Assembly (NCBI RefSeq): GCF_022045235.1 | Contig: NW_027266264.1 | Coordinates: forward strand, 88,660,001 to 88,724,000 | Reading direction: 5' to 3' | DNA: 64,000 nt | Source of the DNA: Haliotis cracherodii | Taxonomy: Eukaryota | In this document: in pieces, positions 31,703 to 40,543 of the stretch | Position numbering within the stretch: the stretch's first letter is position 1 | How the letters are laid out: every line of letters begins with the position of its first letter | Made by a program: the position numbers and the translations under genes | Notes under the pieces: model-generated | The model's input: only the letters and a program-made list of their open reading frames with translations | What the model was told of the DNA's origin: nothing | Database searches by the model: none

Positions 31703-33544
31703 ACAAGTTATTTGGACACTGAGATATAAGGACAATGGGCTATATGGACAATGGCTATATATGGACACTTTTAAGTTGATAACTAAAACCACTTAAAGGG
31801 GCACTGATCTAAAGCAATTCCTGGGACTGGTTGTTGCCTTTGTTATTGTTTTTTCCCTGTGAGTACCCTGATGATGTAGCAGAAATCTAGACTAGTTCCT
31901 GACCTGTGCTGCACCATTCACACTTGTCGCTTTTATTGAGAGTGTAAGGACGTATAGTCACATTGATCAACAAAATGAAATACAGTTCAGTCTTGAAAAT
32001 AATAACAACATGTTGGTATCTTTGCATAGGTAATGATGACGGCGTTTTGATAAGTCACTTGCTTGGTATTGTGCGATTTTCGTTTACACTATTTTGACTT
32101 GAAACACAAAGAAAATATTTCACCTGAGCATTGCTTATTTTATGGTGTGTATGTTTTAAAATAAAAAATGTATATTTTCACCTAGGCAATTCATTAAACA
32201 CCTAAATATTTAGTTATTTTACCAATTGACTGAAAATGTTTATAAATTGCCTGAGTGAATCACATTTTCACATTGCCTGTAACATATATATGCCTACAAA
32301 CGAAACAATGTCTGTCTCGCATTGAAGAACTTCCCAACGAAAATGCAGAGGAATAAGAATGAATCTGTCCAATGCTACAGCAAATGAAGGAAAACTAAAT
32401 GCAAATATCATAATTACAACCTACAAAATTTATGTGTATAATTTTAGGCAGCTTCCTTGTTCGAGGAATGAATCCAATATATTTCCACATAAAGGAACAA
32501 TATCCCACACGTCTGCAGCTGTACAAATAAACTTATTCGATGTCACATGTCTCCATAACAATCAAATATTCTAAAATATACATAGCTTTTCGGGATATTA
32601 TAACCTGTGTTCGTTTGTTTGAGTTGTTTCACATAGGTGTCAAGTCTCAAAGGTCAGCTGCGAAAGCCAAAGTGACAACTATTTTCATAATGTCCACAGT
32701 TCTTTAAAAAAACATAGAGTTAGATGACAATGATCAGCTAATCCTTTGAACAAAGTATGTTGTTTTTTACATTGGCAGATATGGGGGTATTCCATCTGCT
32801 TTAGTAAACATATACATGTTAACACTTACTTTTGACAAATCCACTGTGCAAAATAACAGTGATTATACCTTTAACATAATTTATACTGATCCTCTGATGG
32901 CGAGAAATGATCAGTTGATTTACACAAAAGTAGATCAACTGATCACTCCTCTTGCTCAGCTGCCACGTGCATATTACATAACATACATTTCACCCAACTT
33001 CAAACCAGGATTCAGATAAAATAATTACCCCAGACACAAGAAATGCCAAATGGGAACCTTTGTCTGGTAGTCTGAGCGGAGCTACCACTAATTATACCTG
33101 TAATAAATTCATTAACTGAGGTTCAAGTGAATGACAACAAATACACAGGCGTAGGGTTATACCAGGAAACATGGATGACAACAAGGGAGTAGCAATCATA
33201 TTATCCACACAATCTTATTGCTTTCACTTAAAGGATACATTTTATTGATCATTAAACTATCATCATCAGAGGTATTTCCAAATAAAAACATCCGATGAGC
33301 TTCTAAAGTTCTTTCTGTTTGTTTGTTTAGGCTGAAAAAAATAATTAACATGCGCCCTTTTTAGAAATCTTCATACATCATGGCTCCATTATGACAGGCT
33401 CCGCCATCATGCATGATAGCGGAACTTCAAATTAAGACAAGAGATATTATTGGATGAAATGGTCGCGGATGTGGAGGTACTGGTTGACTGCAGCAATGAG
33501 CTTAACCCCTGTTAAGCAACCCCAACCGCAGCAACCGCTGCCCC

Positions 33545-33745
33545 GCAACTACCGTTGCCAAGCAATCCATGTTGCTTACCAATGCAGCGCCTGCTGCCCT
33601 GCAACTACCGTTGCCAAGCAACCCATGTTGCTTACCAATGCAGCGCCTGCTGCCCTGCAACTACCGTTGACAAGCAACCCATGTTGCTTACCAATGCAGC
33701 GCCTGCTGCCCTGCAACTACCGTTGACAAGCAACCCGTGTTGCTA
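33545..33745. repeat. 56-bp tandem repeat (~3.5 copies) built from three short hairpins, in the element's 3' region
   Basis: Units start at 33545, 33601, 33657 and 33713. Confidence 0.9.
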
Positions 33746-34059
33746 TGCAGCTGTCGCTGCCAGGCAAGTACCATTGCCAAACCATGAGCGAGGGCAACTA
33801 TTGTTGCCAAGCTGACCATCCGCTGTAAAGCGGACACTAAGCCATCTGCTGTAAAGCAGAATGGATAAATTGGTTCCTGCTGTAAAGCGGGCAACCCTAT
33901 CCTAAATAATTTATAATTTGGGATGTATCCCAAGACGCCAAATGTAACTTGTAATGCAGTCCACCAGCACCCCGCCACAAGCACCAAGGTGCTTCCCCAC
34001 AACCACGACCATTCGCGCTCATGTACACCCACCGTGTTATCCTATACTGAAAATGTTTC

Positions 34060-34598
34060 TTACAAGCATACTGCGGGAAGGGAGCTGCCAATGTTTTGTG
34101 TGAAAAGATCAAGTCCGGCCGGTGACAAATGAACCCCATCACGCAGGTACAGTTGCTGCTCCTCCGGGTTGAACACTGTGTGGGGAACCCGTATCCCCCC
34201 AAGCTCACGGGCCCTGTTCCCCACTCGTCTGTTCAGCTTCTGCCTGGCCCCGTCCAGGTCCCGGGCACGGCTGGCTACATGCCAGTACCTCCGTGGCAGC
34301 ATGTCTGACCACAGAATGACAGCACCAGGTAGGAGGAGGTGTATCCTCAGGAGTGCCAGCTTGATCTCATGATATAGCTGACACGTGGTTACCTTACCCA
34401 GGTCGTTCGAACCAAGGTGAATCACCACCGCCTTTGGTGGTGTCTGCATTGCTTTGACCTGTGCATCTATCAGCTTGGTCAGCTCCTCCCACCTCATGCC
34501 GCCCCTTGCCAACTAGAGACATCCCCCTGGAATACTGAAGTCACTGTCCTGTAGGTGCTCTCTCGCCTGGGTCAGGAAGCTGGACCCAACCAACCATA
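34060..34598 (-). pseudogene. SGNH/GDSL hydrolase-like ORF of the retrotransposon
   Basis: Block I VWLVGSS (upstream of the tracked ORF), block II ARGGMRW, block III VVIHLGSND, block V DGVH; premature TAG at 34513-34515. Confidence 0.88.
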
Positions 34599-34647: not shown

Positions 34648-35624
34648 TTAAATGTTTGCAGGTATGCGTATATAGCTTTTATAACATTCTGACCCCCACC
34701 TACCAAAGTGCTGTATCAAATCTGAACTCAATCCGTTACCGGCTGCTGTCGTTGCTGCGCCAATCCTGAAGGAATGCGAAGAGTATGCTGCTGTGCAGAT
34801 GCCGCTATGCGCCAGTGCTCTTTATAGCACGGCCTGAAATTGATACCTGGTCAGGGGAGATTTATCAAAGTGTACGAAAGCTTGAGTCTGAGATGTGATC
34901 GAACTGTTAGGTATGCTTTAACTGCAGCCACTGGACACAGATTGTGGCCAGGTATGGCGGAAATGGAAACAACTATGCCATGTGACTGCCTGTCCGTTTT
35001 TGAATGCCTTAGAGCGACTGTTACTGTCATAGTCGTGTCTTGGACTTCTAGGTCTAAGAAAGCGCACCCTGGCTGAGAATGTTTGGTTTGCATGAGTTCA
35101 CTCACCCGAAAGAAACCAAAGAAGGCCAAGCAATATACTGCTTTGAACAATCTTACTTCATAGGTAGAAGAGCAGAAAAATTGCAGGTTGTTTACAATTA
35201 CTTTGAGCAGGTCTATTGTTATTGTTTTTCTGTGATCCTGCCTCCCCTGACACTTTTGCATCCCGGTAATCATTTTAGTAACAACAAAGTGGCCGGTGCA
35301 GTCTTCCATGCTGTGTAGCCTATGGTACGTTGAGATACCGGCCATATACGTCCTTACCGTACTCGGTGCATGTCCTGAAACTGACAGGTGAGCAATGAAA
35401 TGTACCAGATGAGTGACTGGAACCGGCCAGACATCTCCCAGGTTTTGTGACGCCCTGAATGCTTGCAACGCTTGGGTTCCTGCCTGGTAAGTTGCCCACG
35501 TGTTTGCCGCCAGTGATCGCTGAAGGAGCCTCTCTGCCTCGATTGTTATCCCTGCCAGAGATTGTCTGGAAGTGGTGTGGGATGCAGGTTGGCTGATGGA
35601 GCTGCATTGCGGAATCGTTCCCAC
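34648..35624 (-). pseudogene. Tyrosine recombinase (phage-integrase family) of the retrotransposon
   Basis: LAFFGFFRVSEL, HSKTD, CPV; after a frameshift near 34860-34900: PLTRYQF..HSFRIGAAT..GRWGSECYKSYIR; premature TAA at 34822-34824. Confidence 0.92.
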
Positions 35625-38619
35625 TGAAATCTCGACAGTGCATCTGCGATGATATTGTCGTGTGTTGTTATATATCTGGCCTTGAACAAAATGTTATGTT
35701 TGAGGCACTGCAGCACTAGCTGCCTAATCAGTGACATGATTCTGGGTGCCTTTGAAGACTGTTTATTTATTATTGACACTACAGCTTGGTTATCACAAAA
35801 GAAAAGTACTTTCCTGTTAGCAAAGGCTGTCCCCCAAAGACAAACTGACAGCACAATCGGAAACAACTCCAGCAGTGTCATGTCACGAGTCAAGCCGTCC
35901 TCCACCCGCTCACGGGGCCAGAGCCCGTTTGCCCAGTTCCCGTTATACAGTGATCGCTCGCTAATGCGCTCTTCGATAAAGCGCTACTTCGGTTACTACG
36001 CGCGGTAACGCATGGCTCCCAAAATTTATGTACACTTTTATTACTGATAGTTTTACACAGACATAATTGTATTGTTGTTCGTTGTTCATTTGCACATAAC
36101 GCTTCTCATTGCATAATCAACCGTTTATCGCTGAATGGAGTTCTAATAATCTGTTTGAAAACATCCGCGGCAAGTCCCGGAAATACGATTGTTCAACTAG
36201 TTAACTTTTCACACTATCGACCTTTGATCTTAGAAGCGCATGCATGCAATAAAAGAGAACCACAAGCGAAGTTTATATTCTTAATTAGTGGGCAATCCAA
36301 TTTGAGGCGACACTGTCACACACATGTAGTTGCTGTCACAACACGGCGGTCATTCATTTCGTAATCGCGCTTTCGTAACATCGCCTGTTTTTTTCCGTAG
36401 TTATAACAAGCGATTTCATTGGATTAAAATTTGTTTCTAATGACGCTTTCTTGTTTGATAAATTTCAGAAGTTGGCGAAAGATTTTTTGTTAAATCATGT
36501 TAATCTGAAGGAAAGCAGGAAATCACGATATATATTAAAAATATGGAACTTCGCGAATGTATCGTGCTAGGTTACGAGCTGTGACAAAGATTTTTCATGC
36601 ATATATTTTTGCATTAAACATTGTGTCCGAGCCGAGAATTCAAGGCGACGAAAGCCGAGATGTCATTTGACTTACATTACACGCGATCGCACGAAACGAT
36701 GGAAATAATAACTTAGATGTAAGTTTGATTACTTTTAGATATATTTTTGTTGATTTTATTTATCACTTTGTATAATATATTTAAAGATTTGTTTAAAACG
36801 TCTTTATTTTGCTCTTTGATGTGGACCCGTTGTCGAAATGTGTGTCCGAGAATTTTATTTTTAATAACATCGCGGGAAATAGTGAATAATTTTTTAATTT
36901 ATCGATTAAAAATGATAAATTGAAATGGAATACGTATTTCAGACATTGTGAAATGTGACAGATTTAATAAATGAATGATATTACAGGTAGATCTAGGTCC
37001 ATAAAAATATATACTATTTTGATGTGACGTGAGATAAACACATATTGATGATTTGAGATTTTCCGAGCGCGCGCCTCGGCCTCGGTTAAACGGCTCATCG
37101 TCTATAACGCCCACCAATTATTTGGACCCCATTGATAGCGTTATAGCGAGCGATCACTGTAGTATGCGCCGAACCCCACAGTGCTGGCTGCGTCAGTAAA
37201 CAGCTGCAGACATGTATTGTCAGCCCACTTTTTATTCTGACAAACAGACACACCGTTAAATTCCCCCAAGAACCCGAGCCAAACCTCTAGGTCCTCCCGA
37301 ACTCCCCGCGTGATGCAAACACGGTGTGCTTGATGAGTTACCTTTGTATAGGCATCAATCAGTCTGCGGCAAAACGGTCTACCCATGGGTATTGCCCGGC
37401 ACATGAAATTTAGCTTACCCACCAGAGCTTTACGGGTCACTTTGTGCTTACCTGAGGCCAGCATATCGTGTATGATTGCGTTGACATTTACAATCTTTTC
37501 CTGTGGTATTCTAACCTGCATCCTGACTGTGTCGATTTCAAGACCTAGGAATGTTAAGCAGGATGCAGGACCTACTGTCTTCTCATGTGCCACGGGTACG
37601 CCCAGCTCCTGGAAAGTACTGAGACATGTATCAAGGTTGTCACCACAGTCTTTCATTCCTGCAGTTCCGCCTGTGAGAAAATCATCAAGGTAATGCATGA
37701 GTTGGCAGTTAGGCAACTTTTGCTGGACCCACCATTGCAAAAAGGTGCTGAATTTTTCAAACAGTGAGCATGATATGGAACAGCCAAACGGCAAGCATTT
37801 ATCAAAGTAGTATGTACCTTGAAAGCACAAGCCTAGCAACTCAAAGTCCTGAGGGTGTACCGGCATAATCCTGAAAGCTGATTTCACATCAAAATTTGCG
37901 AGTAGAGCATTTGGACCAAGTTGCTGTACCATACTGACAGCCTCGTTGAACCGTGCATATGACACGGAGCATGCTTTGCTGTCTATGTTGTCGTTGATTG
38001 ATCTGCCTTGAGGATAAGAAAGGTGGTGTATTAAACGAAAATCGTCTGTCCCCAGCAAGGACTGACTCTTACCCGTTTGCTTTTTGGGTACGAGACCAAT
38101 GGGTGAAACTTGTAGGTTCAGCAGGGGCGGCGTTTCAAAAGGACCTGCCACCCTACCTAATTTTACTTCCTTTTTCAATTTGGCAGCTACTATCTCTTGT
38201 AAAATGGGATCCCTGGCTGAGCGTAGATTGTCAGACCAACGACTTAGGCGTGCCCCACTATATTCCAGTTGAAAACCTGATTCCAAACCTTGTAATAAAT
38301 AAATGGCATGGGCATGGTTAGAATGCTTGTACCGTTGCAAATGTCGCTTTAATCTAGTGAGTATGAGTGGAGTTGGGGCCACTGCCTTTAGCATGGGTTG
38401 CCTGTGTGGAGTTAAGTTGTTTGGAGGGTCTACGACCCCCCTTTGCGCGAAAGCAAGAATAGGCGGGATGTTGTTCGCCACAATTGGAGCATTTATGAAT
38501 AAACTTGCATTCTGGCCTGGCGCACCTTGACCTGTTGTAGTCCCAGCATGCGTTGACTGTAAAGTCACAGCCCCTGCTGAAAGGCACTGTAAAGCGTTCA
38601 GTCTTATTTTCTTGAACAC
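35546..38619 (-). pseudogene. Reverse transcriptase / RNase H ORF, interrupted at 35948-37159
   Basis: SPIGLVPKK, FRLIHHLSYP, DVKSAFR, LPFG, YLDD, FLGLEIDT, LFTDAAS..GFGAYY|NGNW..LLELFPI..CDNQAVV..NIIADALSR. Confidence 0.95.
35948..37159. mobile_element. Non-autonomous Tc1/mariner-type element, 1212 bp
   Basis: Perfect 16-bp TIR CAGTGATCGCTCGCTA at 35948-63 and 37144-59; TA TSD at 35946-47 and 37160-61; AT-rich non-coding interior. Confidence 0.92.
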
Positions 38620-39603
38620 GGGACATAGTCGGGGTCATGTGCTTCAACCACAATTCACCGTCTATCTTGCCCCACTCCCGAATAGGGTCTCGTGCCATAC
38701 GGTGTCGGAATTGCTGGTCGTAGTTTGACCAGCCAAAACCCCCGGAGCGGACTGCGGCATTACGGATTGTTTCCATGTATGCCAACATGCCCTGTATGGT
38801 AGACTGACAAAAATGTTTCACCAAGTAAATGCTCATATATATGTGGAAAGCTGACGTCCATTGGCCTATGCTTAGTGCCCTGGCATTAGCCGGCTTGGTC
38901 GGCGAGAATCGCAGATTACCTGAAGAATCCATCTGCATCTTAAATGCATCGTCATCGTCATGTGACTGTGCGCCTGGCGACAATGTAGTCAATTCCACAA
39001 ACTCCCCTCTCCATACTCTCTCCCGTACAACTTGACGGACGTGAGCACTGATAGCATCCGCCTGGAAGGTCAGGGAATCCCCTGTTCCCTGATTGGTTGA
39101 CCCCACTCCTGATTCTGCACATGGTGTGACGTCACAGGAAACTCCTGGCTCGCCCGAGTGTGCGCTGCTAAATGACAACACATCGGGATTTCTTGACACC
39201 ACCGACCCCGTTACCCCCAGATCATTTGTACTTACCCCTCGCATGCCAGTAAAGCTCCGAGAAGTACTTGGGCCATCCGTTTGCCTAGCATATCCAGTAT
39301 GCTGATGAGTTGGCTCGATATAGCTAGCCTCAATGGAATGGGCGACACCACTTGTTGGGGCTCTTCGATGTCTCCGTGATCGACTCGCGGGAGAACGTTT
39401 GAATTGTCCGAATCATCTGCTTCAACTAGCAAGTTAGCAGCTATTTGTACACTTGGCAAGGGGGGTCCGTGCAATGGAGATCTAGCTGATCTCCGTGACT
39501 TACCAGTAGCCGATGTCGCTTGCCGGACACTTGGTTCCCTCCTGGCTATTTTCCCGCTCCTTACGAGGCGGTGATTTAAGGGGGCCCGTCTTTTTGGTGG
39601 CAT
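38354..39603 (-). pseudogene. gag: Gag-like ORF1 of the retrotransposon, frameshifted near 39250-39410
   Basis: Start MPPKRR at 39603; VWRGEFVEL, IGQWTSAFHIYMSIY, GWSNYDQQFR, Zn finger CWDYNRSRCARPECKFIHKCSNCGEQHPAYSC; overlaps the RT ORF. Confidence 0.88.
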
Positions 39604-40543
39604 TCTTAATGGTAATTGCAACGAACTATATATGAATGTGCGAATATAACTATGTGTTGTACGGCTGAAAGCTGGAGAGCAAGTGCTGCGTGAGCTGATG
39701 TCACGCTACAACAGGTCATAGAAAATATAAACAAACGCTCCTTTACCGGACGTGCCAAGAGCGGATCTACACCAGAGATGATGGCACCATGCAAAACGGC
39801 ACGTAGCCGCACGGAATGAAGGTATTTCGCTGTAATAATATTAGCAACTGTGCCAAGCCTAACATAAAGGCATTTAGTTCTAATCACTAAATGCTATTAA
39901 AATGAAACAGAAACAGAACAAGCTATCAATCCGAATCACTCGACTTTATGCTAAAACCAATAATCCTCTTTCTTGAATTTATTATGCCATATACCAAAGC
40001 TAACTGGTCATCAAATCATTATGTAACCATACAATAACAAAATGTGTGGCCAAAGTTATGCTTCATGATCGGAGAATGAATAGAACAGAGTGCAAAAAGA
40101 AAACTAGAACGCTGTATTTACAAAAAAGGAAAGGCACAATAAGAAAGGTCACGTGGAATGCCGAGAAATGATGATATTGTCAACTAACAAAAAGAGGTCT
40201 CATGTGTCAAAGACAGTGGATTGAGTTTCCTGACTTTATGGCTTGGGGATGACGGCAGCAAACAACAAACCTGATCATAAAGGTAAACAGAGAGTCACAT
40301 TTACAACTTGCCAGGGACATCATGCATGATGTAGGTGCAGGTGATATGATTCCTAATATTAAATCTAAAATATTCTTATGTCTCTATCTGAAGCCATGTC
40401 TATGTCAATATCACTGGTTCCAGTGTCAGTCTATTGTTTACAGAGTTAATTACTGTTTTGGCAAGAGATGTCTGAACGTGATGACTAGATCTACTGCTGG
40501 AGGAGGTTGTATTGTGGAGGTTGTGGAGGTAGTGGCGGGGTTG

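Follow-up and report, generated by a model that had tools for sequence, protein, structure and literature searches.

A hairpin chain in an Ngaro retrotransposon forms the variable inner loop of a larger predicted 3'-end fold kept in seven diverged families

Introduction

Ngaro elements are tyrosine recombinase (YR) retrotransposons of the DIRS order, recognized by reverse transcriptase (RT)/RNase H, YR and gag-like open reading frames set within split direct repeats arranged A1-ORFs-B1-A2-B2, as laid out in the accessible text of 10.1101/2021.08.05.455354, PMC8547959, PMC6681497, PMC4157794 and PMC3783388. The Xenopus DIRS-53_XT type, an Ngaro with an SGNH ORF, shares the gag, RT/RNase H, YR, SGNH order and the repeat arrangement of the element described here; it differs in that the copy analysed in this work stops after one B, and the accessible part of that account describes no structure within B (10.1101/2021.08.05.455354). 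For DIRS-1, the available text of one study states that the primer is unknown, proposes a 3' hairpin in this role, and describes internal complementarity that rebuilds ends absent from the RNA, a likeness to the scheme developed below (PMC7192593). Unlike in DIRS-1, the repeats here are direct rather than inverted and the complementarity is imperfect and interrupted, so that the arm described below is not simply a template. A DIRS-1-type ICR, consisting of inverted termini and an internal region matching both ends, was rejected for the locus because of the direct repeats and the imperfect match of the arm.

Strand transfer at the R region of retroviruses and LTR elements involves TAR and poly(A) hairpins, psi stem-loops and short terminal homology. 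The present element is similar in its short terminal homology, its structure at the poly(A) site and its short hairpins alongside a zinc-finger Gag, but differs in that the structure sits at the 3' end within a split repeat and integration is by a tyrosine recombinase. In the self-priming of Tf1, the RNA end pairs with an internal complementary site and it is the 5' end that is used; an RNA end and an internal complement also occur here, but they are the 3' end and an internal arm.

The Ngaro class is thus already known, and no earlier description of the fold, its enclosing stem or docking was found in the literature searched, nor any priming, strand-transfer or packaging signals described for split-repeat elements, although Goodwin and Poulter 2004 and Poulter and Butler 2015 could mention B hairpins. 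The 35-nt arm, its two alternative partners and a G-tract at a repeat boundary are named here as candidate signals in a copying cycle whose priming step the available text on DIRS-1 states to be unknown (PMC7192593).

Results and Discussion

The hairpins lie in the B repeat of a dead Ngaro element

The window, a stretch of 64,000 nucleotides of Haliotis cracherodii DNA, carries on its minus strand ORFs for a gag-like protein with a CCCH finger, RT, RNase H, YR and an SGNH hydrolase, assigned from ORF translations and a domain profile search (Table 1). The hairpin-bearing element is an Ngaro tyrosine recombinase retrotransposon of the DIRS order. The match to RT is strong and those to YR, RNase H and CCCH are weak, sister families match RT/RNase H, YR and gag-like ORFs alike, and the SGNH hydrolase lies downstream of YR, as in Ngaro. 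No methyltransferase domain was matched in the six ORFs scanned. The split direct repeats are present in sister copies, which when intact are ordered A1-ORFs-B1-A2-spacer-B2 with B1 and B2 identical across 609 nt (L003) or 553 nt (L013). The window copy retains A1 and one B only, without A2, spacer and B2, and is dead: its single B lacks 11 nt, RNase H carries a 1214-bp insertion, and there are frameshifts. The first-pass annotation had placed the hairpins in the 3' non-coding region of a YR retrotransposon. They do lie in the 3' tail of the element, but this tail is the B direct repeat, which occurs twice in intact copies, rather than a unique 3' UTR.

Table 1. Features of the element and of its predicted tail fold, in window coordinates
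Feature	Position	Strand	Evidence or remark
B split direct repeat	33379..33976	-	sole B of window copy; without last 11 nt of sister copies
Hairpin near B 3' end	33400..33423	-	predicted by folding
3' arm of basal stem, proposed dock	33458..33492	-	P1 partner 33458-33474; P2 partner 33476-33492
Variable chain, GCARC-N4-GYTGC type hairpins	33500..33808		includes 56-bp tandem array 33537-33744
Hairpin triplet	33819-33834, 33845-33860, 33876-33891		sense YCYGCT-TTAC-AGCRGR; across families YCYGCT-N4-AGCRGR
Helix P2 5' arm, at B start	33956..33973	-	arm complementarity, folding, RNAalifold
Side hairpin AGCAC-N4-GTGCT	33980..33993	-	just upstream of B boundary; 4/5 pairs invariant in 5 families, loop varies
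Helix P1 5' arm	33997..34013	-	upstream of B, outside the repeat
SGNH/GDSL hydrolase ORF	34060..34512	-	PF13472 E 7e-9
Tyrosine recombinase ORF	34851..35693	-	broken at 3' end; weak PF02899 E 0.01; 34-54% identical to YR of sister families F2-F7
RT/RNase H ORF	35546..38634	-	PF00078 E 1e-14; PF13456 E 0.008; split by 1214-bp insertion (35946-37160)
Gag-like ORF with CCCH zinc finger, two frames	38354..39705	-	PF22628 E 1.5e-4, below cut-off
A1 split direct repeat, element 5' end	39620..39899	-	comparison with sister copies

A genome search with the window region returned at least 45 matches (40 of 125 candidates scored), in which the hairpin region is present as the first-pass annotation had anticipated. 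The family of the window copy is termed F1; six further families, F2–F7, were found with SGNH protein searches of the same genome. F2 is young, with many copies 98–100% identical. Many copies stop after one B, and solo A-spacer-B units are also numerous (e.g. L007, L014, L061, L073, L115, L119, L124); these may be products of recombination between repeats or of alternative integration. One solo B repeat, with both ends nearly exact and a target duplication of about 20 bp around it (L133/L197, G000:C15:4689087 region), may be a captured cDNA of B length and is the one case among the classed F1 upstream contexts. The insertion in RNase H is bounded by 25-nt terminal inverted repeats, with TA at either end, and is probably a Tc1/mariner-type miniature element. 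The DxxH motif of the SGNH hydrolase reads DGVH in the window and EGVH, EGIH or RGVH in intact sister families (L061, L064, L068), so that catalysis may not be conserved across families.

The number of hairpins is lineage-specific

All hairpins listed by the first-pass annotation, at 33500, 33528, 33747, 33763 and 33793 and as a trio in each 56-bp unit, were recovered, and its figure of more than 15 agrees with the count between 33495 and 33900, where 16 perfect hairpins reach a stem length of 5 bp or more (18 reach 4 bp or more). Stems recur with 11 distinct loops, as it had described, and three GTAA-loop hairpins (33819, 33845, 33876) and the stem enclosing the chain were missing from its list. 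Dinucleotide shuffles of the same region hold a mean of 2.1 hairpins and a maximum of 6, with 0/500 reaching 16, and a null that preserves the tandem array gives a mean of 2.0 and a maximum of 11 (again 0/500). The excess persists with the array collapsed to one unit (9 hairpins against 1.2 in shuffles, 0/500). Roughly half of the chain consists of copies of a single three-hairpin unit. Folding energy also departs from shuffled controls, as had been proposed as a check, with z of −10.2 for the plus strand as DNA and −4.5 for the sense RNA; 200-nt segments give −7.2 and −2.8 at the hairpin region and −2.3 to +2.0 over the rest of the element.

Across 49 sister-copy rows, in which overlapping loci are incompletely merged, the 56-bp unit is present 0–4 times. 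Short hairpins per B number 13 in F1, 11 in F2 and 7 in F5 against 3.5, 4.4 and 2.3 in shuffles, and 6, 4, 4 and 2 in F3, F4, F6 and F7 against 3.7, 2.3, 2.1 and 1.9 (12 shuffles each); in the two most distant families the number does not exceed chance expectation, and perfect-hairpin counts per 300 bp do not set the B of distant families apart. The length of the chain is lineage-specific, arises from tandem duplication and is not the conserved feature. Within the chain, all 16 distinct hairpins of the type GCRRC-loop-GYYGC are Watson-Crick paired at both variable positions though mixed pairs were allowed, and their half-sites are coupled as nine A-T, seven G-C and no mixed pair (Fisher 9e-5, for hairpins that are not independent of one another).

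A predicted stem encloses the chain in all seven families

At the 3' end of the element a larger fold is predicted, kept in seven diverged families, and the hairpin chain makes up its variable inner loop. A long-range stem, formed by 33458–33492 with 33956–34013, encloses the chain; together with the side hairpin and the hairpin triplet it constitutes what is conserved. RNAalifold, run on an alignment of F1, F2, F3, F5 and F6 made from sequence alone, recovered P1, the side hairpin, P2 and the triplet unaided; F4 and F7 were too divergent and were folded singly. Over the 59 named pairs, 86% of the cells in this five-family alignment pair. Twelve pairs are changed on both sides, compared with 6.0 ± 1.7 in shuffles (0/500) and 2–6 for slid partners. 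These controls take no account of the relatedness of the families, all of them from a single genome, and their counts should not be read as probabilities. F1 supplied the structure that was scored, and part of P1 lies out of register in F5 and F6. The diversity of pair types does not exceed that of shuffles (270/500).

When folded alone, F1–F7 each form 24–35 of the expected arm-arm pairs, on both strands (7/7). A strict ungapped test of the arm found P1 weak in F3, F4 and F7 and missed P2 in a decayed F5 copy. A loosely gapped arm alignment (29 G-U against 8 A-C) was dropped because its scores were mostly reached by shuffles (2–125/300). Within F1, for which 48 and 44 B segments from about 41 insertions were compared, 15 shared variants fall in stems and 20 in unpaired positions, with no significant stem depletion relative to private variants (p 0.26). 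In every family examined, the side hairpin and P2 flank the B 5' boundary. The earlier suggestion of a structured single-strand cis-element is therefore supported by its presence in sister copies, by folding beyond shuffles and by compensatory changes between families.

The arm has a second candidate partner near the likely RNA 3' end

The same arm is also complementary to the 11–15 nt between AATAAA and B2 together with the start of B2. In intact copies, AATAAA ends 11–15 nt upstream of B2 in 6/7 families; it is lacking in F7. The spacer-end bases that precede B2 differ from the sequence before B1, yet extend P2 on the same arm, as RNAalifold also predicts. From the 14 nt that precede B2, P2 gains 7–22 kcal/mol in F1–F6 and nothing in F7; for F1–F6 the extension has p 0.003–0.019 against other 14-mers of the same tail and 0.001–0.086 against shuffles. 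If the register is left unconstrained, the spacer end clearly beats its own shuffles in two of the seven families (F1 and F2). The spacer-end pairing could also serve the fold of B2 alone.

Variants that distinguish B1 from B2 bear on the position of the RNA end. An extra T near B+6 occurs in B2 of 13/24 F2 elements and in no B1, and follows lineage, which suggests that the transcript ends just inside B2. Further in, from +65 onward, most shared variants occur in B1 and B2 alike (F2 +275, four in both and one in B1 only; F2 +293, five in both and two in B1 only; F1 +140, four in both). From these patterns, the RNA would include at least about 9 nt of B2, with the change of template to B1 falling between about +9 and +65.

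The other repeat boundaries carry features of their own

A C-rich tract that is prone to G-quadruplex formation on the minus strand (G4Hunter 1.75–2.45) begins within 8 nt of the A2|spacer boundary in 7/7 families, for example as a (CCCA)3CCC-type sequence at L003:2472–2487, and no second G-quadruplex-prone segment of that kind was found in the tails of the seven families. The B|A junction has a two-stem hairpin fold in 7/7 families with ATTTAG..CTAAAT-type arms (e.g. L003:2178–2240). The window copy lacks both the tract and the junction fold. The first-pass annotation had listed a recombinase substrate among the functions of the chain, which is unlikely because the B|A junction, where the crossover takes place, is about 130 nt distant and has a separate fold. 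An attC-like folded recombinase site was likewise rejected, given that the fold is not centred on the crossover and the junction folds separately in all seven families.

Proposed docking of the RNA end and rival readings

Because the closing stem is also able to pair with the likely RNA end, the fold probably guides copying of the element ends. The reading that we prefer, with a probability of about one half, is that the fold acts in the element RNA as a dock that brings the transcript 3' end to the B boundary, where priming or strand transfer would follow, the hairpins being Gag sites. Of the functions offered by the first-pass annotation, strand transfer has gained support, together with priming. 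The complementarities and boundaries are properties of sequences from one genome, from which folding, the RNA end, binding and function are inferred. The RNA would be cleaved slightly inside B2, so that most of B2 would have to be copied again from B1 with about 10–20 nt of homology. The B1 domain would fold in the RNA, and the RNA end would displace the upstream P1 strand from the arm, in register with the B1 5' boundary; once docked, it would set the priming or template-switch point that regenerates B2. The CCCH Gag or RT may bind repeatedly at the triplet and at the duplicated GC-stem hairpins, the number of GC-stem hairpins drifting by slippage, and the minus-strand G-quadruplex tract at the other repeat boundary may be a matching stop signal. 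More tentatively, Ngaro elements might rebuild their split repeats without a tRNA primer by combining an RNA switch, in which the arm exchanges the B1 boundary strand for the RNA 3' end and so fixes priming and B strand transfer, with a minus-strand G-quadruplex that halts synthesis at the A end, the chain being a Gag-loading loop.

The fold could instead act in minus-strand single-stranded cDNA, as a signal for second-strand priming or stopping or as protection from nucleases, which we consider rather unlikely. Single-stranded cDNA with a suggested secondary structure accumulates in DIRS-1, according to the accessible text (PMC7192593). Folding as DNA has a larger z on the antisense strand (−8.0 against −5.6 on the sense strand) and the G4-type tract sits on the minus strand. 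As RNA the values are z −9.0 sense and −9.7 antisense, and the energies as a whole do not discriminate between the strands. On the cDNA minus strand the triplet loops, each starting with an invariant G, read GTAA, GAAA and GAGA and resemble GNRA/GNNA loops, which are stable. Against these points, the commonest mismatch of the triplet stems is U-G in the sense and C-A in the minus strand (4/5 and 3/5 families), and three frequent stem variants (present in 14, 16 and 9 of 36 insertions; one was judged by eye) toggle between Watson-Crick and sense G-U pairs. Internal mismatches in strand-neutral helices comprise 16 G-U, 4 A-C and 26 others on the sense strand, an enrichment of G-U and not of A-C that has p 0.014 among all mismatches and p 0.08 against A-C alone, with ancestral states counted repeatedly; the strictest ungapped test gives four G-U against three A-C. 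Sense RNA is favoured as the folding strand, by roughly two to one.

Were the fold an RNA packaging and 3'-end-processing signal only, with hairpins that bind Gag and a stem that regulates the poly(A) site but no template switching, this stem would lie over the cleavage region and over the B2 start, which is GU-rich, and both the purine-rich loops of the chain on the sense strand and the CCCH finger of Gag would fit. The position of the B 5' boundary would however be left unexplained and the arm of B2 itself lies downstream of the likely cleavage site, and we regard this reading as quite unlikely. An origin as a by-product, in which the RT slips and switches template by folding back, so that short palindromes are duplicated and made perfect without selection, appears very unlikely for the fold as a whole, although slippage or RT by-products probably account for the length of the chain. 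The varying unit number, the other tandem units elsewhere (103 bp in F3), the growth of a decayed B fragment into a 26-bp minisatellite and the non-significant stem constraint within F1 speak for it, but the mismatches, internal loops and one-sided side hairpin retained by the long stem show that it is not templated, the arm has two different upstream partner sequences, and position and geometry are maintained across families. Finally, the palindromes might be double-stranded DNA sites for dimeric proteins, with B an enhancer comparable to the U3 region of LTRs. Conserved stems whose 4-nt loops and tandem number vary are also what arrays of protein-binding sites typically look like, which counts for the DNA-site reading, and GTTGCC..GCAAC resembles RFX X-boxes. 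It is nevertheless highly improbable; the half-sites are coupled, the wobbles are strand-biased and a stem with a range of 500 nt would be unnecessary.

The fold and the boundary features can be used to annotate Ngaro ends, and the young F2 could serve as an assay element for the docking reading.

Database searches, small RNAs and neighbouring repeats

Rfam models gave no match, with two sub-threshold hits (E 0.26 and 0.5) in six loci, and no relative was found among viral contigs. Metagenome contigs yielded 14 loci, nine of which were examined; five have RT or YR and none has the same motifs, most ending too early. One of these loci (L082) has a similar enclosed domain fold (z −3.7), a weak resemblance in a single sequence. 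Three small-RNA libraries of a related organism, low in counts, gave 11, 393 and 50 reads, mostly antisense and of about 30 nt, with peaks in the ORFs and A and a depth of 0.1–1 over B. The pattern looks like piRNA-type silencing, and the three libraries give no sign of hairpin-derived small RNAs.

Several repeats were observed beside the element or derived from it. The flank at 32239–32777 matches (73–75%) a repeat that also flanks an F5 copy (L070), and a separate inverted repeat lies at 32902–32951, with a folding z of −5.1 over the segment containing it. Unrelated minisatellites dominate positions 1–32000 and 42000–64000 of the window (45 listed). Elsewhere in the genome, one triplet hairpin unit of 26 bp from a decayed B has grown into minisatellites of about 2 kb and 0.7 kb (L134–L144, G000:C16:3873500–3875450 and 3927780–3928510), and arrays related to it also occur in contigs of other organisms.
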